A program made the position numbers and the translations under genes. Under the pieces are notes generated by a model. The model had not been told where the DNA came from and searched no databases. It worked only from the letters and a program-made list of their open reading frames with translations. Shown one piece after another: positions 3,847-63,778 of a stretch of DNA of 64,000 bases. The stretch is from a phage, in sequence record PZ445534.1; one strand, written 5' to 3'. How positions within the stretch are numbered: the first letter of the stretch is position 1; the number at the start of each line of letters is the position of its first letter.

Positions 3847-4176
3847 TTAATCTGCCAGCCTTAAATTAAAATTAACACCAAATTTTTCGCATACTTCCAA
3901 CATATACTCAAGCGAGACATTACCAGTGAGGTGGACTATGTTGGATACACGAGCTTGAGAGATACCACAAATTTTAGCAACTTGCTCTTGAGAAAGACCT
4001 CTGGATTTAATCTCTCTCTTAAAACGATGTGCAACGAAATCTCTCATTTCGTCTACATCCATTGGACAAATATAACTCTCCATTTCAGCCTCTCTGTCAG
4101 CCTCCCAATCATCTTGTGGAGCATAAGGGTCAAAAACCTCATTCATCTTTCTTCTTCCGTTTGCGTGAAGTGTCAA
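3847..4176 (-). CDS. helix-turn-helix DNA-binding protein (XRE-like)
   Basis: C-terminal segment LSQEQVAKICGISQARVSNIV resembles XRE-family HTH. Confidence 0.5.
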   Translation of the reverse strand: MTLHANGRRKMNEVFDPYAPQDDWEADREAEMESYICPMDVDEMRDFVAHRFKREIKSRGLSQEQVAKICGISQARVSNIVHLTGNVSLEYMLEVCEKFGVNFNLRLAD

Positions 4177-20415: not shown

Positions 20416-22650
20416 ATGATTAAGACAATTAAAAAATCAAACGGTACAGTAGTAAGCTTTGACCCAGAAAGACTGAATAAGTGGGCATCATGGGCAGATA
20501 AACGTGGGATTATCTGGTCAGAAGTCACTATGGAAGCCATGAAACGTGTCTATGAGGGTTGCACTACAAAAGAGATGCACCAAGCCATGATTGATGTTTG
20601 TGTTGATAAACAAACTCAAGAGTACTCAGATATGGCTGGACGACTGCTTTTGGGTATTATCTACAAAGAAGCCTTTGGAGGCTTTACTAAGGTTCCTACG
20701 CTGGTTACCTTCGTTAAAAATATGGAGAGAGCAGGACTTTGGGAGAAGATGGACTATTCACAGGAAGAGCTTGAATATCTGCAAGGTTACATCGTACACT
20801 CAAAAGATATCTCTTACGGCTATGCAGTCTTGAAACAGTTCAGAGACAAGTATGGTATCCGTGATATTAAAACTGGAAGACTTTTTGAGTCACCACAATT
20901 TATGTTTATGGGTATGGCTATGAAAGCCTTTGAGAAGCAACCAAAGCACCGTAGACTGCAAGATGTTATCAAGCTGTACACTTACCTATCCGACCTGAAG
21001 ATTAACGCTCCTACGCCTTATTTAAATGGTTTAAGAGCAACTAAATCAGGTTATGCGTCATGCTGTTTGATTAAGGCAAATGATACTGCTGAGTCTCTCG
21101 GTATTGCTGCAAAGGTTGCTTATGATATGACCACAAAGCAAGCTGGTATTGGTATGCTGATGGAGACACGTACTATTGGTGATGGTATCCGTCAAAACAC
21201 TATTGAGCACATGGGTAAACTACCTTATTACAAGCTTGTACGTTCATCTGTAGAGGCAAACAAACAGAAGAGCCGTGGTGGTTCAGCTAATAACTTCTAC
21301 ACCGCTCTAGACCCGCAGATTGAAGACTTACTGCGTTTGAAGCACCCTACAACGGTTCCTTCTAAACGTATTAATGAGATGGACTACTCATTCGGCACAA
21401 ACGATTATTTCTGGCAGTGTGTTCAGTATGATACAGATTGGTTGCTATTCTCGTACAAAGATGCACCAAAACTCTATGACATGTTCTACACAGCATCTGC
21501 TGATGAGTTTGCTATGGCAGTTGGTCACGCAGTACACTCAGGAGTTAAGCACAGACGAGTTAAGGCTCGTGAAATTGCTAAGCTGTTTATTCAACAGCGT
21601 TATGCTACAGGACGTGTGTATCCATTCTTCACTAACAATGCAAACACACATACACCATTTAAAGAGCCTTTGAAGATGTCAAATCTTTGTATGGAAATTG
21701 TGTTGCCAGTGTATGGTTTTGAGAAAGAGACAGACCTTTACAGAGACGATGCTGTGAAAGAGGATGGTGAGGTGGCTCTTTGCTTCCTAGCTAGTTTGGT
21801 TGCAGGGAGAATTTCAGAAGATGAATACGCTGACGTTGCTTATTATGCTCTTGCAATGGTTGACTCCGTTATTGACCTTATGGATTATCCGTATCCGTCG
21901 ATGCGTAACCATGTTCAGAAGCGTCGTTCTGTTGGGATTGGCCTTACAAATGTGGCTCATTACCTTGCGAAGAACTACGTGAACTACTCTTCACGAGCAG
22001 GTAAAACGAAACTTCATGAACTTGCAGAGATGCACTCTTACTATCTGCATGAAGCTTCTCTGAGACTTGCTAAAGAGCGTGGTGTTCCAGAGTACATGAA
22101 GTTCACTAAGTATCCTGAAGGCTGGGTTCCTCCAAAGACAGCTAACAAGAAGATTGATGAAAAGCATGATGCAAAACTACGATATGATTGGGATGACTTA
22201 GCACAACGTATCAAAGAAAATGGTGGAATCCGAAACTCTGTATTAGAAGCTTACATGCCTAATGAGAGTTCTTCACTAGCAACTAATACGACAAACGGCT
22301 TGTACCCAATTCGTGACTTTATTTTAACTAAAAAGTCTGCAACTGGTAACGTACTGTTTATTGTTCCAGATTATGAAGAGTTGAAGTATGTCTATGAAAT
22401 TGCTTGGAATATTGACACCTTTGATATGATTGATTGTTATGCAATTGTTCAAAAGTTCACTGGTCAAGCTATCTCTTCAGACTTCTATGTTGACTATGCA
22501 AAGTCTAAGAAGGTATCATTGGCTCAAGCTCTGAAGTACATGATTTATGCCAACTCGGTAGGTATGAAAACAATGTACTACCTTAACAGTCGCATTGGTG
22601 TAGGTAAATCTGCACTGCAAGATGCTTATTGCGAGGGTTGTGGTGTTTAG
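20416..22650 (+). CDS. nrdA: ribonucleoside-diphosphate reductase class Ia large subunit
   Basis: N-terminal ATP-cone-like segment, 744 aa, C-terminal CEGCGV cysteine pair. Confidence 0.85.
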   Translation: MIKTIKKSNGTVVSFDPERLNKWASWADKRGIIWSEVTMEAMKRVYEGCTTKEMHQAMIDVCVDKQTQEYSDMAGRLLLGIIYKEAFGGFTKVPTLVTFVKNMERAGLWEKMDYSQEELEYLQGYIVHSKDISYGYAVLKQFRDKYGIRDIKTGRLFESPQFMFMGMAMKAFEKQPKHRRLQDVIKLYTYLSDLKINAPTPYLNGLRATKSGYASCCLIKANDTAESLGIAAKVAYDMTTKQAGIGMLMETRTIGDGIRQNTIEHMGKLPYYKLVRSSVEANKQKSRGGSANNFYTALDPQIEDLLRLKHPTTVPSKRINEMDYSFGTNDYFWQCVQYDTDWLLFSYKDAPKLYDMFYTASADEFAMAVGHAVHSGVKHRRVKAREIAKLFIQQRYATGRVYPFFTNNANTHTPFKEPLKMSNLCMEIVLPVYGFEKETDLYRDDAVKEDGEVALCFLASLVAGRISEDEYADVAYYALAMVDSVIDLMDYPYPSMRNHVQKRRSVGIGLTNVAHYLAKNYVNYSSRAGKTKLHELAEMHSYYLHEASLRLAKERGVPEYMKFTKYPEGWVPPKTANKKIDEKHDAKLRYDWDDLAQRIKENGGIRNSVLEAYMPNESSSLATNTTNGLYPIRDFILTKKSATGNVLFIVPDYEELKYVYEIAWNIDTFDMIDCYAIVQKFTGQAISSDFYVDYAKSKKVSLAQALKYMIYANSVGMKTMYYLNSRIGVGKSALQDAYCEGCGV

Positions 22651-57050: not shown

Positions 57051-58466
57051 ATGAGCGAGTTATTTAAACATGCGCACCTTCATGCAGGTCGAACTGAAAA
57101 TGGTGCTGTAAACCATACTTCATCAATGTCTGCTCTGGTAGACTTCTACAAAGCCGCTGGCTCAAGCCGTAGCAATGTAGAAGTCTTACCAGACCTGTTC
57201 TACAAAGCTTTGCGTGAGGATGTTGATGTTGCAGTTCGTATTTTACTGCATATGCGAGATGTACGAGAGGGTATGGGTGAGCGTAAAGCCTTCCGAACTG
57301 TTTTACTTCAAGCAATTGAAGATAAGGTTTTAGAACCTACACAGGTTCTTCGCATTATGGATAAGATTGCAGAACTTGGTCGTTTTGATGACTTCAAAAT
57401 CTTCGTAGGTACTCGTTTTGAGACAGATGCCTTCAAACATTTAGAAGCAGCATTACTAGACCCTGCAACAGCAGGTTTGGCAGCTAAGTGGTTACCACGA
57501 GTCAAACCACGTCATAAGCAGTTTGTAAAACGTTTCTGCAAGTTTGCCAACTTGAGTGAGAAAGAGTACCGCACACTGTTGTCTGCACTATCTGATACAG
57601 TTGAGCAAAAAATCTCTGCTAATGAGTTTGGTAAGATTGACTACAGTAAGATTCCTTCACTTGCTGCTGCACGTTACCAAAAACTGTTTAACCGTAAAGA
57701 TGGAGAGCGTTACAAAGCTTACATCGAGTCCTTATCAAAAGGTGAGACTAAGATTAACGCTGGTGCTGTTTACCCATACGATGTGATTAAATCTGTCAAG
57801 TATGGTAATGCAGATGTTGCTAATGAGCAGTGGAAAGCACTACCAAACTGGATGGCAGAAGGTGAAAACATCTTGTGTATGTCTGATGTATCAAGTTCAA
57901 TGTCTTGGGTGAATTTTGGCTCCATTACTGCTCTGGATATTGGTGTATCACTTGCCTTGTATGTAGCAGAACGCAATACAGGTTGCTTTAAGAATGAGTT
58001 AATGGTTTATTCAACAAACCCTCACTTCATCGAACTGAGTGGTGATTTACGAAACCGTCATCGTCAGGTGATGCGACACGTTGAATATGGCTCAACTAAC
58101 TTACAAGCAGCTTTTGACCGCATTCTTGAAACAGGTAAAAGAAACAACTTGACTCAGAAAGATATGCCAAGTAAGCTTATCATCTTCTCCGATATGGAGT
58201 TCAATCAGGTTGATGGAGCTAACGGTCGTACAAACTTTGAAGCAATTCAGAGTAAGTACAAAAAAGCTGGATATGAGATGCCACAACTGGTATTCTGGTA
58301 CTTAGCAAACCGTAATGGTACTTGCGAAGTATCTGTTAAGGATAACGGTGTAGCAATGTTATCAGGGTTCTCTCCAGCCACTTTAAAAGCTCTGCTTGGT
58401 GGTGAGAAGTTTGACCCAATCAGTGTAATGCTCAAAGCAGTAATGATTGACCGTTATATCTGGTAA
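57051..58466 (+). CDS. von Willebrand factor A domain protein (DUF2828/TROVE-like?)
   Basis: MIDAS-like CMSDVSSSMSW (DxSxS); N-terminal TENGAVNHTSS segment. Confidence 0.45.
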   Translation: MSELFKHAHLHAGRTENGAVNHTSSMSALVDFYKAAGSSRSNVEVLPDLFYKALREDVDVAVRILLHMRDVREGMGERKAFRTVLLQAIEDKVLEPTQVLRIMDKIAELGRFDDFKIFVGTRFETDAFKHLEAALLDPATAGLAAKWLPRVKPRHKQFVKRFCKFANLSEKEYRTLLSALSDTVEQKISANEFGKIDYSKIPSLAAARYQKLFNRKDGERYKAYIESLSKGETKINAGAVYPYDVIKSVKYGNADVANEQWKALPNWMAEGENILCMSDVSSSMSWVNFGSITALDIGVSLALYVAERNTGCFKNELMVYSTNPHFIELSGDLRNRHRQVMRHVEYGSTNLQAAFDRILETGKRNNLTQKDMPSKLIIFSDMEFNQVDGANGRTNFEAIQSKYKKAGYEMPQLVFWYLANRNGTCEVSVKDNGVAMLSGFSPATLKALLGGEKFDPISVMLKAVMIDRYIW

Positions 58467-58622: not shown

Positions 58623-58699
58623 AAAGTTTATCTCTGTTTAGCTCAGCTTGGTAGAGCGTTCCGTTTGGGGCGGTAAGGCCGGAGGTTCAAGTCCTCCAA
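58623..58699 (+). tRNA. tRNA-Pro (anticodon TGG)
   Basis: Acceptor CTCTGTT/AACAGAG, D-arm AGCTCAGCTTGGTAGAGC, T-arm GGAGGTTCAAGTCCTCC, encoded CCA; one anticodon-stem mismatch. Confidence 0.7.
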
Positions 58700-58706
58700 C
58701 AGAGAC

Positions 58707-58784
58707 CAAATTAATGTTCCAGTAGACAAAATGGTATAGTCACCACTCTTTCAAAGTGGATATCTGAGGGTTCAAATCCCTTCT
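58707..58784 (+). tRNA. tRNA-Glu (anticodon TTC)
   Basis: Acceptor GTTCCAG/CTGGAAC, anticodon arm CCACT-CTTTCAA-AGTGG, T-loop TTCAAAT, CCA. Confidence 0.7.
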
Positions 58785-58786
58785 GG

Positions 58787-58866
58787 AACGCCAGTTTTGA
58801 CAGAAGACCAATTACAGCAAACTTAATCTACTCATCTGAAAGTTAATCGGACAAAGAAGATATTTG
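58787..58866 (+). repeat. inter-tRNA repeat element copy 1 (ACAGAAGACC-N4-TACAGCAA ... GGTCTGG)
   Basis: Conserved 5' and 3' motifs shared with copies at 58953, 59347, 59437. Confidence 0.6.
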
Positions 58867-58875
58867 GTCTGGTCA

Positions 58876-58951
58876 TTAAGAATTGCGGGTATAGAGAAAG
58901 GGCGTCTCACATGTCTCATTAGCATGGTATCGGCAGGTTCGACTCCTGCAC
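58876..58951 (+). tRNA. tRNA with CAT anticodon (Met/fMet/Ile2), irregular acceptor pairing
   Basis: D-arm GAGA-AAGGGCG-TCTC, anticodon arm CATGT-CTCATTA-GCATG, T-arm GCAGGTTCGACTCCTGC; acceptor 6 of 7 pairs. Confidence 0.5.
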
Positions 58952-58952
58952 C

Positions 58953-59025
58953 CGCCTCCAAATTTACAGAAGACCGTTTACAGCAATATTTATTAAATTT
59001 TTAGCGGAAAAATTGAAAGATACGG
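58953..59025 (+). repeat. inter-tRNA repeat element copy 2
   Basis: ACAGAAGACCGTTTACAGCAA ... ACGGTCTGGT. Confidence 0.6.
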
Positions 59026-59034
59026 TCTGGTAAT

Positions 59035-59108
59035 ACTAAATATGGTTAGGAAGCACATAAGGTATGTGCGGTCGCCTGTTAAGCGAATGGCACAGGGTTC
59101 GAATCCCT
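59035..59108 (+). tRNA. tRNA-Asn (anticodon GTT)
   Basis: Acceptor GGTTAGG/ACTAACC, D-arm GCAC-ATAAGGTAT-GTGC, anticodon loop CTGTTAA, T-arm CAGGGTTCGAATCCCTG; no encoded CCA. Confidence 0.6.
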
Positions 59109-59119
59109 GACTAACCGCA

Positions 59120-59207
59120 AAATTAAATGTGTCGTTATCCCGTAGATGGTAGCGGTGGGGACTGTAAATCCCTTGTCATTGAGACTCGGTAGGTTCGACT
59201 CCTACAC
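59120..59207 (+). tRNA. tRNA-Tyr (anticodon GTA), long variable arm
   Basis: Acceptor GTGTCGT/ACGGCAC, anticodon arm GGGGA-CTGTAAA-TCCCT, T-arm GTAGGTTCGACTCCTAC, CCA. Confidence 0.65.
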
Positions 59208-59212
59208 GGCAC

Positions 59213-59289
59213 ACCAATAAAGGCTATGTAGTTTAACTGGAGAAAATACTCCCCTGTCACGGGAGATGATGTGAGTTCAAGTCTCATCG
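59213..59289 (+). tRNA. tRNA-Asp (anticodon GTC)
   Basis: Acceptor GGCTATG/CGTAGCC, anticodon arm CTCCC-CTGTCAC-GGGAG, T-loop TTCAAGT, CCA. Confidence 0.7.
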
Positions 59290-59346
59290 TAGCCGCCAAT
59301 TTTGAGAGGGCTATTTAGCCCCTCCCTTAAAGAGTTCTTACGAGTA

Positions 59347-59428
59347 TTCTTTAAAGGAGCAGAAGACCAAATACAGCAAGAATGTATGATATTTTCAAGC
59401 CAATTCAATTTTGAAAAATTTAAAACTT
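59347..59428 (+). repeat. inter-tRNA repeat element copy 3
   Basis: CAGAAGACCAAATACAGCAA ... CTTGGTCTGGC. Confidence 0.55.
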
Positions 59429-59436
59429 GGTCTGGC

Positions 59437-59572
59437 TCAACAAATTTACAGAAGACCGTTTACAGCAAAACTTAAACAATCTATTTCTCGGTAAAGAAAA
59501 GGCGAAGGTTCGATTCCTTCACTCGGCAGAGGTCGAGTTGGTGTAATGGTAGCACTTAAGATGATAAACAAC
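59437..59572 (+). repeat. inter-tRNA repeat element copy 4 enclosing tRNA halves in permuted order
   Basis: ACAGAAGACCGTTTACAGCAA ... [anticodon-arm-like + T-arm GAAGGTTCGATTCCTTC + 3' acceptor ACTCGGC] GAG [5' acceptor GTCGAGT + D-arm GTGTAATGGTAGCAC] ... ACGGTCTGGT. Confidence 0.5.
59474..59547 (+). other. tRNA-like segments in 3'-half then 5'-half order (permuted tRNA or recombinant tRNA fragments)
   Basis: 3' acceptor ACTCGGC (59512-59518) is complementary, with one G.U, to GTCGAGT (59523-59529) located 4 nt downstream. Confidence 0.4.
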
Positions 59573-59721
59573 GGTCTGGTAATTATCTTTGCAGTAGCTT
59601 ATGTGGCTAATTATGTCGTCCCATGAGTGCCGATGAATTTCCTTAGCATGATTCTAGATTAGCTTAATAGGAAATGACTCTACAGACCCTTTAGCAAGGT
59701 CTGCGTAGGTTACTGCAAAGA

Positions 59722-59797
59722 TGATTTAATGGAAGTGTAGCAGAATGGTGATGCGGCAGACTTTTAATCTGACAGGCGATGGGTTCGAATCCCTCCA
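59722..59797 (+). tRNA. tRNA-Lys (anticodon TTT)
   Basis: Acceptor GGAAGTG/CACTTCT, anticodon loop CTTTTAA, T-loop TTCGAAT with weak T-stem, CCA; homologous to tRNA at 60957. Confidence 0.55.
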
Positions 59798-59802
59798 CTT
59801 CT

Positions 59803-59879
59803 ACCAAAAATGGTTCAGTCGCAGATAAGGTAATGCAAGGGTTTCATAAGCCCTATGAATGTGGGTTCGATTCCCATCT
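59803..59879 (+). tRNA. tRNA with CAT anticodon (Met/fMet/Ile2)
   Basis: Acceptor GGTTCAG/CTGAACC, anticodon arm AGGGT-TTCATAA-GCCCT, T-loop TTCGATT, CCA. Confidence 0.65.
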
Positions 59880-59881
59880 GA

Positions 59882-59957
59882 ACCTCCAATGCTGTGAAAG
59901 CACATATGGATGTGCATTCGGCTGATAACCGAAAGGCAGAAGGTTCGAATCCTTCTC
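59882..59957 (+). tRNA. tRNA-Ile (anticodon GAT)
   Basis: Acceptor GCTGTGA/TCACAGT, D-arm GCAC-ATATGGAT-GTGC, anticodon arm TTCGG-CTGATAA-CCGAA, T-arm GAAGGTTCGAATCCTTC, CCA. Confidence 0.7.
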
Positions 59958-59972
59958 ACAGTACCAATTTCA

Positions 59973-60001
59973 ATAAAGTTGTTGACATTAAGATGTGACT
60001 A
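59973..60001 (+). promoter_or_regulatory. sigma70-like promoter inside tRNA array (TTGACA-17-TATAGT)
   Basis: -35 59973-59978, -10 59996-60001. Confidence 0.55.
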
Positions 60002-60205
60002 CTTTATAGTAACCTTAGTTTTCGTTGCGTAGCGTCTATTTTGCAAATTTAAAATAAATGCAAACGACAATGTTTTTCTGGCAGTAGCTTGATAGGCTAA
60101 ACACCAGTGAGGTCTTCCAATCCCTCATCAAAGAATTTGGCGTACTCGCCCACGGTATGATTAATAAGGTGGGCATCTTTAAGGGCTTTCTAATAGAGTC
60201 TTTAA

Positions 60206-60287
60206 AGATAATTACGGGGCGTATCTCAGCGGTCTTCTAAACCGCCGTTAACCGAGTAAGTGGAGTATGCGGGTTCGAGTCCTGCCG
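60206..60287 (+). tRNA. atypical tRNA-like gene, possible anticodon TCT (Arg)
   Basis: Acceptor CGGGGCG/CGCCTCG, T-arm GCGGGTTCGAGTCCTGC, CCA; hairpin GCGGT-CTTCTAA-ACCGC; D-arm region not canonical. Confidence 0.4.
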
Positions 60288-60430
60288 CCTCGACCAATTT
60301 AGTTAGCAGATTACTTAGACGACCTAAGCGGGTCTTCCTGTAGGGAGGTGGTCTGTATCTCATGTTTTCCAGAACATGTAAATAATCTGAGAAGGGGCTT
60401 TACAGTGTTGAGATAATACGGTAAGCTTCG

Positions 60431-60513
60431 AATTATAGTATGGGACGATGTTAAGACTCTAAGGCATGAGCAACGGCCTCCAAAACCGTTTCAAAGGGGT
60501 TCAACTCCTCCGT
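60431..60513 (+). tRNA. atypical tRNA-like gene, possible anticodon CCA (Trp)
   Basis: Perfect acceptor ATGGGAC/GTCCCAT, T-loop TTCAACT, CCA; enlarged D region. Confidence 0.4.
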
Positions 60514-60526
60514 CCCATGCCAAAGT

Positions 60527-60614
60527 CTTATTAGGGGTAGGTAGCGGCTAATGGCAGCCAAACAGTCTTGAAAACTGTTGCCACTGTAGAGATACGGTGA
60601 GGGTTCGACTCCTT
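60527..60614 (+). tRNA. tRNA-Ser (anticodon TGA), long variable arm
   Basis: Acceptor GGTAGGT/ACTTACC, anticodon arm ACAGT-CTTGAAA-ACTGT, 20-nt variable arm, T-loop TTCGACT. Confidence 0.6.
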
Positions 60615-60770
60615 TACTTACCGCCTAATAAGATTTTAAAGCCAAGCTTCATTCGGATGTCGCTTTGGTATCCCTCGTGTATTGTCGTACACACTGATAA
60701 AACACCTAGTAGGTGTCACGGAGAAGAGATAATATCAAGCTCTCCAAAGGTTCTAGTCACCGGATTAAAC

Positions 60771-60797
60771 AAGACTATGCAAAGACCTTTTTAGGTC
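60771..60797 (+). terminator. rho-independent terminator inside tRNA array
   Basis: AGACC-TTTTT-AGGTCT plus TTTTT. Confidence 0.5.
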
Positions 60798-60872
60798 TTT
60801 TTAGAGGGCTTCTAAGGTTATTACAGCTTGTTGTGGAACCTTGTTGCTTAGGTTCTTAGAAGTTCTCTAAAA

Positions 60873-60949
60873 AGATTTAATGCACCTATAGCCCAACTGG
60901 TAGAGGCAGCAGACTTAGAATCTGCTCAGTGTGAGTTCGAATCTCTCTA
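60873..60949 (+). tRNA. tRNA with anticodon TAG (Leu by anticodon) but short variable arm
   Basis: Acceptor GCACCTA/TAGGTGT, anticodon arm GCAGA-CTTAGAA-TCTGC, T-loop TTCGAAT, CCA. Confidence 0.55.
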
Positions 60950-60956
60950 GGTGTAC

Positions 60957-61032
60957 CAAATTAATGCAGGTGTAGCAAAATGGTTATGCGGCTGACCCTT
61001 AATCAGTAAGACGATGGGTTCAATTCCCTCCA
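60957..61032 (+). tRNA. tRNA-Lys (anticodon CTT)
   Basis: Acceptor GCAGGTG/CACCTGT, anticodon arm GCTGA-CCCTTAA-TCAGT, T-loop TTCAATT, CCA. Confidence 0.55.
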
Positions 61033-61038
61033 CCTGTA

Positions 61039-61114
61039 CCAAACAATGGGGTCATAGTTTATATGGTTAAAATTCGAGTTTTGCAAACTTGGGAACTGAG
61101 TTCAATTCTCAGTG
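61039..61114 (+). tRNA. tRNA-Ala (anticodon TGC)
   Basis: Acceptor GGGGTCA/TGACTCC, anticodon arm CGAGT-TTTGCAA-ACTTG, T-arm CTGAGTTCAATTCTCAG, CCA. Confidence 0.7.
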
Positions 61115-61120
61115 ACTCCA

Positions 61121-61195
61121 CCAATTAGTGCATCCATAGTTTAAACGGGAAAATTACAGTCTTCCAAACTGAGGTTGAGGGTTCGATTCCCTCTG
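61121..61195 (+). tRNA. tRNA-Gly (anticodon TCC)
   Basis: Acceptor GCATCCA/TGGATGC, anticodon loop CTTCCAA, T-arm GAGGGTTCGATTCCCTC, CCA. Confidence 0.7.
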
Positions 61196-61202
61196 GATGC
61201 TC

Positions 61203-61278
61203 CAAATTAATGCTCCTATCGTATAATTGGTTATTACGGTTGCCTTGTAAGCAACTTATCAGGGTTCGAGTCCTTGTG
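61203..61278 (+). tRNA. tRNA-Thr (anticodon TGT)
   Basis: Acceptor GCTCCTA/TGGGAGC, anticodon arm GTTGC-CTTGTAA-GCAAC, T-loop TTCGAGT, CCA. Confidence 0.7.
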
Positions 61279-61384
61279 GGAGCACCAATTCAGAGGTCAA
61301 GTGAAAGACCGCTTTGAGTCAACTGAAGACCGTAACAAATTCCACGAAGTTGAGTTAGCGGCACAACTTCAGACCTCTTTCATA

Positions 61385-61459
61385 CTCGCTTAGTTTATAT
61401 GGTAAAACATCACCCTTACAAGATGAAGAAAAAGGTTCAAGTCCTTTAGTGAGTACCAT
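61385..61459 (+). tRNA. tRNA-Val (anticodon TAC)
   Basis: Acceptor ACTCGCT/AGTGAGT, anticodon loop CTTACAA, T-arm AAAGGTTCAAGTCCTTT, CCA. Confidence 0.6.
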
Positions 61460-61460
61460 G

Positions 61461-61538
61461 TTCCAGTATCCCAATTGGCAGAGGATGCAAGCTCAAACCT
61501 TGTATTAGTGACGGTTCGAATCCGTCTTGGAACACCAA
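61461..61538 (+). tRNA. tRNA with anticodon CAA (Leu by anticodon) but short variable arm
   Basis: Acceptor GTTCCAG/TTGGAAC, anticodon arm GCAAG-CTCAAAC-CTTGT, T-arm GACGGTTCGAATCCGTC, CCA. Confidence 0.55.
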
Positions 61539-61543
61539 TTTTG

Positions 61544-61619
61544 CAGGATTAGTTCAAATGGATAGAGCAACAGTCTACGAAGCTGCTAATAGGGGTTCGA
61601 ATCCCTTATCCTGCGCCAA
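61544..61619 (+). tRNA. tRNA-Arg (anticodon ACG)
   Basis: Acceptor GCAGGAT/ATCCTGC, D-arm GTTC-AAATGGATA-GAGC, anticodon loop CTACGAA, T-loop TTCGAAT, CCA. Confidence 0.6.
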
Positions 61620-61637
61620 TTTAAAGAGGCTATTTAG

Positions 61638-62195
61638 ATGAGATATTTGAAGTATGCTTCATGGATTTTCTTAGCTTTGTTAGAGCCATTTGCAGCAATC
61701 TTAGCAGTTATCTTAGCACCTTTTGTAGTTCCATTCTACAGTGAGAAGAAAGGGCACTTACCTTTCGGGTTCAGATGGATGGAGACATATGACAACCCAA
61801 TTGATGGTGATGAAGGTCACGTTAAAAGATGGGCTAATATTAGATGGATTGGTAAACTAGGTGTCTACATGCAAAGAGTCGGATGGCTCTGGAGAAACAA
61901 AGCTTATAACTTCTCTTACCATGTATTAGGAAGAGATGTAAGAGATGTTACTAAGTGGAAAGGTAATATCAACGTAAGTTCTGACCCCGAAGATAATCAG
62001 ACAGGTTATCTCCTAATGTGGAACAGTAATGCTTGGGGATTATTCGCTTTTATCCCATCAATTAAAATCTTTGGTAAACAATTTTACTGGAGAATTTATA
62101 TTGGATGGAAACTAAAAAGTGTTGTCCCAGAAGAAAGAGCATTCTCAAGGGAAAGAGTTATGTTGGCATTCTTTATTCATCCACTGAGAAAGTAA
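61638..62195 (+). CDS. hypothetical membrane-anchored protein encoded within tRNA array
   Basis: 185-aa ORF with N-terminal hydrophobic segment WIFLALLEPFAAILAVILAPFVV. Confidence 0.45.
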   Translation: MRYLKYASWIFLALLEPFAAILAVILAPFVVPFYSEKKGHLPFGFRWMETYDNPIDGDEGHVKRWANIRWIGKLGVYMQRVGWLWRNKAYNFSYHVLGRDVRDVTKWKGNINVSSDPEDNQTGYLLMWNSNAWGLFAFIPSIKIFGKQFYWRIYIGWKLKSVVPEERAFSRERVMLAFFIHPLRK

Positions 62196-62203
62196 AGATT
62201 TAA

Positions 62204-62279
62204 AGGGGATTAGTTTACAAGGTTAAAACCTCGGTCTTTGAAATCGAAGAAGTTGGTTCAATTCCAACATCCCCCGCCA
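62204..62279 (+). tRNA. tRNA-Gln (anticodon TTG)
   Basis: Acceptor AGGGGAT/ATCCCCC (1-72 mismatch), D-arm GTTT...AAAC, anticodon arm TCGGT-CTTTGAA-ATCGA, T-arm GTTGGTTCAATTCCAAC, CCA. Confidence 0.6.
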
Positions 62280-62281
62280 AT

Positions 62282-62360
62282 GCTCCATTACTCCAATTGG
62301 CAGAGAGGCCAGACTTAAAATCTGTGTTATGTATCGGTTCGAATCCGATATGGAGTACCA
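62282..62360 (+). tRNA. tRNA with anticodon TAA (Leu by anticodon), 7-nt variable loop
   Basis: Acceptor GCTCCAT/ATGGAGT, anticodon loop CTTAAAA, T-arm ATCGGTTCGAATCCGAT, CCA. Confidence 0.5.
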
Positions 62361-62365
62361 AATTT

Positions 62366-62441
62366 AGCGGTATAGCATAACTGGCAATGCAGCAGCCTCT
62401 GAAGCTGTCCTATTAAGGTTCAAATCCTTATGCCGCTGCCA
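62366..62441 (+). tRNA. tRNA-Gln (anticodon CTG)
   Basis: Acceptor AGCGGTA/TGCCGCT, D-arm GCAT-AACTGGCA-ATGC, anticodon arm GCAGC-CTCTGAA-GCTGT, T-arm TAAGGTTCAAATCCTTA, CCA. Confidence 0.7.
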
Positions 62442-62472
62442 CTTCTAAGGATTCTTGCGAGAGTCCTTAAAT

Positions 62473-62548
62473 GTGGCCTTATCATAAACGGTAATGACCC
62501 ATGCTGTGAACATGGTCTATACGGGTTCAAATCCCGTAGGTCACCCCA
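62473..62548 (+). tRNA. tRNA-His (anticodon GTG)
   Basis: Acceptor GTGGCCT/AGGTCAC, anticodon arm CCATG-CTGTGAA-CATGG, T-arm ACGGGTTCAAATCCCGT, CCA. Confidence 0.7.
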
Positions 62549-62554
62549 ATTTAT

Positions 62555-62630
62555 AGTCCAAGTAGCTTATATGGTTAAAGCGCGTGTCTGAAAAACATGA
62601 GAAGAGAGTTCAAATCCCACTGGACTACCA
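62555..62630 (+). tRNA. tRNA-Phe (anticodon GAA), boundaries approximate
   Basis: Anticodon arm CGTGT-CTGAAAA-ACATG, D-arm GCTT...AAGC, T-loop TTCAAAT; acceptor pairing ambiguous between two registers. Confidence 0.5.
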
Positions 62631-62646
62631 ATTTCAAAGGTGCTTA

Positions 62647-63381
62647 ATGAAAGAGATGACAGAACAAGGTAAGGAGATTTTTAATCTCTTAAAAACTGGT
62701 AAAGGGTTCTCTAACCCGCTTATTACTGGTGCAGCAGTTCTCGGTGGAACCGTAGCTGCCTCTACATCACTTGTAAGCTCTATTAGTTCTGTAACAGACC
62801 CTACAATGAAGGAGAAGCTTGTTGCTGCTGGACTTACAACAGTCCTTCTAAACAGCTTTACAACAAGCCTGACAAGCACTACAGCAACCACTAAGACCCT
62901 AACAGACTATGGTCAAAAGTCTATTGATGAGTTTTCATCACGTATGCAGGTAGCAAAGGGATACTCCAATGTTATGGGTGCAGCAGGAGAACAAGTTGGT
63001 TGTACACCATTCAGTGGTATTATGGGTGTTGCTACAGAATATGGTCAAAAAGCTATTGATACGATTAACAGTACACTAGAGAGTGTTAATGGTGTGTTAA
63101 GTGACTTACAAGATGCTATTGATAAGGGTCTTGATACTGTTTCTGATTTAGCTAATCAGGCTGTTAGTAAGATTAATGAAGGTATTTCAAAGATTACAGC
63201 TTATGCAGATGAAGTTGTGCAGATGATTGAAGAAGAAGCTGCCCTTATTGCAGAGTACCTTAAAACGAATATCAATGGGTTCTTAGCAGGTATCTTACCA
63301 GACTGGTTTGATGATGCTTGTAAAACTGGTGTAATCGACACTATTGCAACACCAGAAATGAAGAACGCATTGCAGAAATAA
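62647..63381 (+). CDS. hypothetical Ser/Thr-rich protein
   Basis: ATG at 62647 with AAGGTG RBS (ORF track start 62584 would overlap tRNA-Phe). Confidence 0.45.
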   Translation: MKEMTEQGKEIFNLLKTGKGFSNPLITGAAVLGGTVAASTSLVSSISSVTDPTMKEKLVAAGLTTVLLNSFTTSLTSTTATTKTLTDYGQKSIDEFSSRMQVAKGYSNVMGAAGEQVGCTPFSGIMGVATEYGQKAIDTINSTLESVNGVLSDLQDAIDKGLDTVSDLANQAVSKINEGISKITAYADEVVQMIEEEAALIAEYLKTNINGFLAGILPDWFDDACKTGVIDTIATPEMKNALQK

Positions 63382-63382
63382 T

Positions 63383-63475
63383 GGAAGATTAACCCTAAAA
63401 GGTAAGGGAGCAGTTTGCTAAACTGCCAGTAGCTGAGAAATCGGTGTACCAGTTCAAGTCTGGTATCTTCCTCCA
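63383..63475 (+). tRNA. tRNA-Ser (anticodon GCT), long variable arm
   Basis: Acceptor GGAAGAT/ATCTTCC, anticodon arm GCAGT-TTGCTAA-ACTGC, T-arm ACCAGTTCAAGTCTGGT, CCA. Confidence 0.6.
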
Positions 63476-63480
63476 ATTTT

Positions 63481-63555
63481 GAATCCGTGACAGAAATGGA
63501 TATGTGCCTGTCTGCAAAACAGGTTTATAAGGGTTCAAGTCCCTTCGGATTCTCC
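63481..63555 (+). tRNA. tRNA-Cys (anticodon GCA)
   Basis: Acceptor GAATCCG/CGGATTC, anticodon arm CCTGT-CTGCAAA-ACAGG, T-arm AAGGGTTCAAGTCCCTT, CCA. Confidence 0.65.
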
Positions 63556-63778
63556 AAGTTATTTTACTCTCTCTCAATTAAAATAATAATAATGCCCTGC
63601 TATAAGTATTCTTCCTTTCGCTACCGAAGAGTATTTTTAGACAGGGCTTTTTTACAGAGTTATACTTTATAAGAAGGCTTATACAGTATGTCTCTGACGT
63701 ACATTGTGGTTTCTCCTTGACGGTCTCTGTGCCGTCTTTTTTAAGGAGAAACATGGTTAATTATTTGGAGAAAACATA

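Follow-up and report, generated by a model that had tools for sequence, protein, structure and literature searches.

Reviews describe tRNALeu as carrying a long variable arm (type II, or class II) everywhere save in animal mitochondria (PMC9976931), and the bacterial type I form, which lacks this arm, has been called rare and unusable by the Escherichia coli leucyl-tRNA synthetase (LeuRS), EcLeuRS (PMC6614811). The closest described system is the type I tRNALeu(CAA) of Streptomyces coelicolor, which has been characterised and is charged by the LeuRS of that organism, ScoLeuRS (PMC6614811; Fan, Huang, Ji & Wang, NAR 2019), and a study of the MenT3 toxin lists just three of the five tRNALeu of Mycobacterium tuberculosis as long-armed (PMC11541572). 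Here we analyse 64,000 nucleotides (nt) of phage DNA from sequence record PZ445534.1, hereafter the window, whose numbering gives all positions. It holds an array of 25 tRNA genes (58632-63556, + strand, called by ARAGORN) in which three genes with Leu anticodons have no long arm. Like the S. coelicolor tRNA, each combines a Leu anticodon with a short unpaired variable loop, U8-A14 and A73, and in both cases the type I molecule shares its cytoplasm with type II tRNALeu and a single LeuRS. Unlike it, the three are encoded by a phage whose hosts have type II tRNALeu themselves (four genes of E. coli K-12, 85-87 nt); they have U48 rather than C48, their variable loops measure 5, 6 and 7 nt, and three isoacceptors are armless rather than one. 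We propose that the three genes specify working elongator tRNALeu of the type I, or armless, family, which would be charged by the host LeuRS and serve the AT-rich codons of the phage, and we put the probability of this reading at roughly three in four.

The array region (5.2 kb) is 95-97% identical to the genomes of Felixounavirus, the Felix O1-like myoviruses of E. coli, Salmonella and Shigella, and by this similarity the source of the window is a Felixounavirus. All three Leu genes lie on the + strand: tRNA-Leu(UAG) at 60882-60958 (77 nt), tRNA-Leu(CAA) at 61460-61537 (78 nt) and tRNA-Leu(UAA) at 62282-62360 (79 nt). All are type I; ARAGORN called them with the anticodons tag, caa and taa, and each matched the Rfam tRNA family RF00005, at 57.3, 44.0 and 47.5 bits respectively (E-values 9e-11 to 4e-7); the gathering score of that family is 29, and the three are thus tRNAs by the Rfam criterion. 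The ARAGORN cloverleaves have stems of 7/3/5/5 base pairs (bp), with all seven acceptor pairs formed, and every gene has a canonical 7-nt anticodon loop with U33, the T-loop UUCGAAU and an encoded CCA. tRNA-Leu(UAG) has the acceptor stem GCACCUA/UAGGUGU, U8 and A9, a 3-bp D-stem GCC/GGC with the mismatch C13.A22, the D-loop AACUGGUAGA, the anticodon loop CUUAGAA with A37, the variable loop UCAGU ending in U48, and A73. In tRNA-Leu(CAA) the corresponding elements are GUUCCAG/UUGGAAC, U8 and A9, UCC/GGA with C13.A22, AAUUGGCAGA, CUCAAAC, AUUAGU (U48) and A73, and in tRNA-Leu(UAA) they are GCUCCAU/AUGGAGU, U8 and A9, CUC/GAG with C13.A22, AAUUGGCAGA again, CUUAAAA, GUUAUGU (7 nt, U48) and A73.

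ARAGORN and our own dissection agree that the variable regions comprise 5 (UAG), 6 (CAA) and 7 nt (UAA) and that no stem can form in them; the stem-loop of more than 10 nt that characterises type II tRNALeu is missing from all three. Long variable regions are present elsewhere in the same array, of 20 and 21 nt in the tRNA-Ser genes (90 and 93 nt) and of 15 nt in tRNA-Tyr (88 nt). For type I tRNALeu, a variable loop of 5 nt, nucleotide 48 included, was found to be the minimum for good charging (PMC6614811), and none of the three phage loops is shorter. Minimum free energy folding returned a cloverleaf for the UAG gene, a near-cloverleaf without D-stem for CAA and no cloverleaf for UAA; the z-scores of -0.2 to -1.8 are uninformative and this folding was dropped as a test for tRNAs. 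The first-pass annotation of this DNA, made by reading the sequence alone, had described type I folds with three Leu anticodons and variable regions of 5-7 nt, a description that ARAGORN, Rfam and dissection all confirm. Its third interval was exact, while the first (60873-60949) was displaced by 9 nt and the second (61461-61538) by 1 nt. It had allowed that the anticodon register might be mis-assigned, yet ARAGORN assigns the same anticodons, and automated folding, inspected for other anticodons or long arms, gave neither. Its premise that bacterial and known phage tRNA-Leu are all type II is contradicted by published work (PMC6614811, PMC11541572) and by the scans described below.

The identity set of E. 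coli LeuRS consists of A73, U8:A14, A15:U48, G18G19, A20a and U54:A58 (PMC9976931, PMC2377443, PMC6614811); the enzyme needs neither the anticodon nor the long arm, and armless tRNALeu variants stay active (PMC9976931; Giege & Eriani 2023). This published set is complete in all three phage genes, each of which has A73, U8, A14 and A15, ends its variable region in U48 and has a 3-bp D-stem with the mismatch C13.A22, together with a D-loop, AAYUGGYAGA, whose length and G18G19 register are those of E. coli leuV and leuW (AAUUGGUAGA). Inspection of the discriminator and of the arm, which had been suggested as a check, thus found A73 throughout and the long arm absent. With the E. coli genes leuW (UAG), leuX (CAA), leuZ (UAA) and leuV (CAG), the phage genes share anticodons, A73, U8, A14, A15, the length and G18G19 register of the D-loop AAUYGGUAGA, a 3-bp D-stem with a 13.22 mismatch, U48 and CCA. 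They differ from them in lacking the variable stem-loop of 13-15 nt, in overall identity (55-67%), and in having C13 instead of G13, A9 instead of G9 and, in the UAG species, A37 instead of G37. Animal mitochondrial tRNALeu also join type I architecture to the identity elements A73 and A14 (PMC9976931), but they have degenerate D- and T-loops and a dedicated LeuRS, whereas the elbows of the phage tRNAs (G18G19, UUCGAAU) are canonically bacterial.

The bodies of the three tRNAs resemble tRNALeu even when the anticodon is hidden. We built crude isotype profiles from about 1,200 phage tRNAs with the anticodons masked; type I Leu was the best profile for each gene, at 55.1 (UAG), 40 (CAA) and 39 bits (UAA), and type II Leu with the arm cut out was the runner-up, at 35, 13 and 23 bits, so that both Leu profiles outscored the 19 other isotypes, with the reservation that the same method placed the correct isotype first in just 1 of the 9 control tRNAs scored. 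Among about 1,600 tRNAs, the nearest neighbours were all tRNA-Leu (76-83% identity), and those of tRNA-Leu(UAG) were other type I tRNA-Leu (79-83%). Of the possibilities that had been listed for these genes, that of atypical Leu tRNAs is the one that the evidence backs.

Another of those possibilities was that the tRNAs are charged with a different amino acid. Leu anticodons would then serve sense-codon recoding or deliberate mistranslation, and there are precedents, since a mismatch between tRNA class and anticodon has marked reassignment elsewhere, as in yeast mitochondrial tRNAThr(UAG), and allo-tRNAs with Leu anticodons have Ser or Ala identity (PMC7609411). We consider this very improbable for the window. 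The 3:70 pairs are A-U, U-A and U-A and the geometry is 7/5 with 7-nt loops; none of the three genes has G3:U70, a long arm with G73, an anticodon loop enlarged to 8 nt, or 8/4 or 9/3 geometry. The nucleotide A35 excludes most anticodon-reading synthetases (PMC9976931), and the Leu-like body found with the anticodon masked also argues against the idea. So do the codons themselves. When NrdA (20416-22650) was aligned with 45 homologues of at most about 58% identity, Leu-consensus columns held 5 of 6 UUA codons, 10 of 16 CUU, 7 of 7 CUA, 12 of 15 CUG and 5 of 11 UUG, the remaining UUG codons falling in columns of I, M or V; the counts per codon are small (2-16). Leu was the commonest consensus residue for every type of Leu codon, CTC (n=2) tying with Ile, and the agreement equalled or exceeded that of Ile, Val, Phe and Met controls. 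Leu codons in NrdA therefore align with Leu in homologues, and this alignment of 45 homologues gave no hint of codon reassignment; the isotype profiles and tRNA geometry likewise lend charging with another amino acid no support.

The codon usage of the phage fits the preferred reading, that of host-charged elongators. In 41 long open reading frames (ORFs) with 38.8% GC, leucine is encoded by UUA (24%), UUG (15%), CUU (28%), CUC (6%), CUA (11%) and CUG (16.5%). In E. coli, CUG makes up about half of the Leu codons. Phage usage is low in CUG by comparison, and the three anticodons therefore serve codons that the phage over-uses: the UAA anticodon would decode UUA and UUG, CAA would decode UUG, and UAG the CUN codons. 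On this account, the codons so read dominate the 39%-GC phage genes, and the host tRNA pool would be tuned to CUG.

Conservation among relatives bears on whether the genes are functional. The GenBank record of Felix O1 (NC_005282) already labels the three genes tRNA-Leu; records of some relatives show just two tRNA-Leu and several 'tRNA-OTHER' in the array, the latter not matched to particular genes. In 216 phage records, tRNA-Leu(UAA) has an identity of 99% or more, and in Citrobacter phage KMM4 it differs from that of the window in the first base alone. tRNA-Leu(CAA) is identical in Felix O1 and KMM4, and SME50 differs by one variable-loop substitution. The armless design persists across the subfamily Ounavirinae; Erwinia phage phiEa21-4 has type I tRNA-Leu(CAA), tRNA-Leu(AAG) and tRNA-Leu(UAA), in which the changes relative to the window in acceptor, anticodon and T stems are fully compensated. 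Across 58 diverse type I Leu sequences, 97.8% of stem cells are paired, against 35-47% with slid partners, and both-sided changes occur at 20 of 20 pairs; this pairing is far beyond chance, with the caveat for fold statistics that ARAGORN enforces cloverleaves.

The tRNA-Leu(UAG) slot is more varied. Felixounaviruses have two unrelated alleles there, both type I, one beginning GCACCUA (the window and phage 'heid') and one beginning GGGAGAU (Felix O1, SME50, KMM4 and FG1m); the comparison covered window positions 60882-60958 and the loci L001 (Felix O1) at 3909-3986, L331 at 1428-1505 and L332 at 1428-1505. The two alleles point to a probable cassette replacement at a fixed position. Within the GGGAGAU allele, the anticodon stems of Felix O1 and SME50 are wholly different, each paired at 4 of 5 positions. 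In Salmonella phage FG1m (L333, 3999-4076) there is a hybrid gene whose 5' part is tRNA-Leu(CAA) and whose 3' part is tRNA-Leu(UAA), and the Arg and Gln genes and the ORF that lie between the two are gone, which implies a deletion of about 0.8 kb, presumably by recombination in the shared T-arm sequence GGTTCGAATCCG.

That hybrid, and two decayed tRNA-like remnants in the array of the window (60216-60297 and 60440-60524), are what could be cited for taking the three Leu genes as decaying pseudogenes or artefacts of tRNA finders. Such a reading is scarcely tenable in view of the agreement of two independent detectors (ARAGORN and Rfam) with strong scores, the near-identity of the genes in hundreds of genomes and the compensatory substitutions that distant relatives show.

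To place the genes in a wider family, we scanned public collections with a pattern that joins a Leu-type D-loop, a Leu anticodon loop and type I spacing to a UUCGA T-loop; the pattern occurs in at least 120 viral contigs and at least 120 bacterial genome contigs, and the counts that follow from these scans are among the matches listed. At 120 viral loci, 185 of 230 ARAGORN tRNA-Leu were type I, comprising 172 distinct sequences with all six anticodons. Their variable loops measured 5 nt in 147 cases, 6 nt in 26, 7 nt in 8 and 4 nt in 4, and 173/185 had A73, 174/185 U48 and 183/185 an N13.A22 mismatch. At the same loci, long arms were kept in 89 of 90 tRNA-Ser and 42 of 42 tRNA-Tyr. Bacterial SerRS and TyrRS use the long arm and bacterial LeuRS does not; the retention of Ser and Tyr arms and the loss of the Leu arm agree with this division, and phage arrays would thus have lost the arm only in the class II tRNA whose bacterial synthetase does without it. 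A wider pattern that admits both spacings, which makes the sample its own control, gave 43 type I and 90 type II viral matches (among those listed, in scan order), that is, about one third of viral tRNALeu in this motif class is armless, a figure that is indicative only. These counts suggest that armless tRNALeu are routine in phages, at about one third of one motif-defined viral sample, and the window genes are ordinary for phages: genuine, not unique.

Among the bacterial genome matches listed, 112 pattern-matching tRNA-Leu were type I; 89 loci had a solitary gene, about 15 were dense arrays of 9-26 tRNA genes, and by record titles most belonged to Actinomycetota (Nocardia, Mycobacterium, Rhodococcus, Gordonia, Corynebacterium, Bifidobacterium). 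Four loci from Acidobacteriota and other genomes (L146, L203, L234, L237) hold 23-26 tRNA genes in 8 kb, with three to five type I Leu next to Ser and Tyr that have long arms; tRNAs of 89-93 nt with a UAU (Ile) anticodon occur in three of these four as well. BLAST searches with a consensus type I Leu sequence gave contiguous matches annotated as tRNA-Leu in isolated phages beyond the Felix group, with the hosts Bacillus, Enterococcus, Mycobacterium, Streptomyces, Gordonia, Rhodococcus, Pseudomonas, Vibrio, Erwinia, Cronobacter, Synechococcus and Prochlorococcus, and a T5-like phage of Aeromonas has three type I tRNA-Leu. A search with a consensus type I Leu found no similar tRNA in 5,426 complete E. 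coli genomes, which rules out host-borne E. coli copies, and in this host armless tRNALeu therefore come only with virulent phages. A literature search met the exact phrase 'type I tRNALeu' only in PMC6614811, did not meet 'Felixounavirus' in the listed papers on tRNA and found no description of armless tRNALeu in phages, an absence that is not proof of absence; as far as could be found, the phage members have not been discussed before. Type I tRNALeu is, in short, a known but little-noticed kind, of which the window genes are real and conserved members already annotated as tRNA-Leu.

Several observations weigh against the three genes being host-charged elongators. tRNA-Leu(UAG) has A37 (loop CUUAGAA, 60915-60921) where E. 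coli leuW has G37, which we take to be the m1G37 site. Among the viral type I Leu listed with NAG anticodons, A37 occurs in 56 and G37 in 33. The variable loops of the CAA (6 nt) and UAA (7 nt) genes lie in the tail of a family distribution whose mode is 5, and the scan pattern itself fixes the D-loop and T-loop, so that these features are not independent evidence in the family statistics. Most directly, in vitro leucylation of the Streptomyces type I tRNALeu(CAA) by EcLeuRS failed, and the enzyme has been described as charging type II tRNALeu only (PMC6614811). If that failure generalised, the Leu tRNAs of Felix O1 would be orphans in their own host, charged hardly or not at all, and their role would lie outside decoding, for instance as decoys or regulators, as primers, or as a source of tRNA fragments. 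The authors of that assay also report a preference of the EcLeuRS leucine-specific domain for tRNAs whose variable-region loop is large (PMC6614811).

We nevertheless regard such non-decoding roles as unlikely. The variable loop of the Streptomyces substrate is A44-C45-A46-G47-C48 (PMC6614811), and with C48 it is therefore without the A15:U48 pair required by E. coli LeuRS. U48 is present in all three phage tRNAs and in 94-97% of the type I Leu collected (among the matches listed), and the full E. coli identity set of the phage genes includes this nucleotide that the failed substrate lacks. By our inference, the negative EcLeuRS result may be a property of that C48 substrate and not of armlessness, and so may not transfer to the phage tRNAs. 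Armless E. coli tRNALeu constructs are still substrates (PMC9976931), among them a 'minimalist' tRNALeu with A73 and the D/T tertiary pairs (Larkin et al. 2002, per PMC9976931); that molecule is engineered, whereas the phage tRNAs are natural genes. There is also precedent for one LeuRS able to charge both types of tRNALeu (PMC6614811). Canonical 7-nt anticodon loops with U33, a sensible set of anticodons that fits phage codon usage, encoded CCA, and four stems kept by compensatory change across the subfamily all speak against a non-decoding role, and the suggestion that the genes are regulatory tRNA-like RNAs finds no support. To judge from their identity elements, the elongator tRNAs would be leucylated by the single LeuRS of the host through A73 and the elbow formed by the D- and T-loops (U8:A14, A15:U48, G18G19, A20a, U54:A58).

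The mismatch at 13.22 provides a marker of descent. Among the matches listed, C13.A22 is present in 102 of 185 viral type I Leu against 2 of 44 viral type II Leu (Fisher p = 1e-10), and in 116 of 134 actinobacterial type I Leu genes. In our scan, type I tRNALeu of Actinomycetota other than S. coelicolor share the Felix D-arm, with C13.A22 and GCCC-AAYUGGCAGA-GGC, and over positions 8-50 the tRNA-Leu(UAG) of the window and a tRNALeu(UAA) of Actinomycetaceae differ at two positions, one of them in the anticodon. These data favour a distinct type I lineage that would circulate among phages and arrays, as opposed to a recent arm deletion from enterobacterial genes, and the armless design would then belong to a large, sequence-coherent tRNALeu lineage that many phages, tRNA arrays and Actinomycetota chromosomes have in common. 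The distribution of C13.A22 speaks against an independent loss of the arm from host-type Leu, with the proviso that molecules of 74 nt are too short for firm phylogeny. A different origin is possible for a second subgroup, marked by G13.A22, to which the genes of the Aeromonas phage belong.

Arm loss might itself have been selected. The tRNALeu would then still accept leucine but go unseen by some factor, of host or phage, whose target for recognition or cutting is the long arm of class II tRNAs, and Leu decoding by the phage would survive the disabling of host tRNALeu by a defence nuclease, a toxin or a phage-induced attack. Infection by phage T4, for instance, cleaves host tRNALeu1. Phages and tRNA arrays have more type I Leu than textbooks would lead one to expect; the lack of similar tRNAs in 5,426 E. 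coli genomes means that the design arrives only with virulent phages; and the allele that replaced tRNA-Leu(UAG), though unrelated, is type I as well. A toxin that reads the variable arm's length and orientation is on record, MenT3 acting on tRNASer (PMC11541572). No such arm-directed factor was identified in the window, however. We know of no arm-directed factor against tRNALeu for E. coli or Salmonella, which also counts against this possibility. Phage T5 manages with type II tRNALeu: its tRNALeu(UAG) is, like that of the window, phage-encoded in the tRNA array of an E. coli phage, but it is 85 nt long and type II, and armless Leu are therefore not universal among coliphage tRNAs. The tRNALeu of T4 is also type II, a further point against evasion. 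Native chromosomal type I Leu in Actinomycetota indicate that the design needs no defence rationale, and plain descent from a mobile type I lineage accounts for the data. Evasion of an arm-directed factor is in our view improbable. The proposal that armless tRNALeu are a mobile, phage-spread lineage selected for arm loss, or in a weaker form that they function in hosts such as E. coli whose LeuRS has been described as restricted to type II, is doubtful, an outside chance.

The arrangement of the array is consistent with joint expression. Spacers between the Leu genes and adjoining tRNA genes are 1-7 nt; tRNA-Leu(CAA) begins 1 nt past tRNA-Val and tRNA-Leu(UAA) 2 nt past tRNA-Gln, and the gene orders are Val-Leu(CAA)-Arg, Gln-Leu(UAA)-Gln and Leu(UAG)-Lys-Ala-Gly-Thr. 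Because the Leu genes lie 1-7 nt from their neighbours, we infer co-transcription and processing by RNase P: the elongator tRNAs would be transcribed within tight polycistronic clusters, with CCA already in the gene, and RNase P and 3' processing enzymes of the host would trim them. A promoter and terminator scan found 14 promoter-like sites against 12.1 expected from shuffling, which is not above chance, and the transcription units are for this reason drawn from gene spacing alone.

Directly upstream of the array, an ORF of 471 amino acids (57051-58466, +) has the domains DUF2828 and DUF7788, and GenBank relatives give it the label 'RNA-binding protein'; it may lie next to the array for a reason or by chance. 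The ORFs flanking the array as a whole have DUF2828/DUF7788, DUF7338, DUF7217 and DUF5681, and no synthetase-like protein that could provide a LeuRS of the phage's own or a helper was found among the large window ORFs scanned. In Felix O1, ORFs for HNH endonucleases stand between tRNA genes (for example Gly/Thr, and before Ile); they are absent from window positions 59300-61300. This comparison marks the array as a probable hotspot for gain and loss of homing endonucleases.

Other members of the array also have unusual features by our own dissection. tRNA-Ser(GCU) (63383-63475) has U73 where G73 is usual, and the 3' end of tRNA-Ser(UGA) (60536-60625) encodes CC only, with no CCA. In a tRNA-like element at 60216-60297 (+), with no ARAGORN call and an Rfam tRNA score of 31.7 bits, the acceptor stem CGGGGCG/CGCCUCG is intact and A73, CCA and a T-arm are present; there is no D-arm, and the variable region has about 18 extra nt. 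The anticodon arm of the element matches the tRNA-Arg(UCU) in the same slot of phage KMM4, and the choice is between a decayed tRNA-Arg and an odd tRNA that has no D-arm. A second tRNA-like paralogue at 60440-60524 (+), whose sole Rfam match is a weak one to tRNA-Sec (23 bits), has an 8-bp acceptor stem and an anticodon stem AACGG/CCGUU around the 9-nt loop CCUCCAAAA; it may represent a pseudogene or a tRNA with an expanded loop.

The claim about EcLeuRS specificity is directly testable on the tRNALeu of Felix O1, which would tell whether the arm or position 48 is limiting. In annotation, armless Leu genes may receive wrong scores from isotype models that were trained on type II Leu, and short Leu-accepting scaffolds may serve tRNA engineering. 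If arm loss does protect against defences that target tRNA, these genes would join the work on phage tRNAs as a means of counter-defence. In a well-studied lineage of phages of E. coli and Salmonella, all three tRNALeu are armless, and the breadth of the type I family contradicts the generalisation made in reviews; if armless tRNALeu do work in E. coli, both the rule that all tRNALeu are class II and the claim that EcLeuRS charges only type II would need revision.

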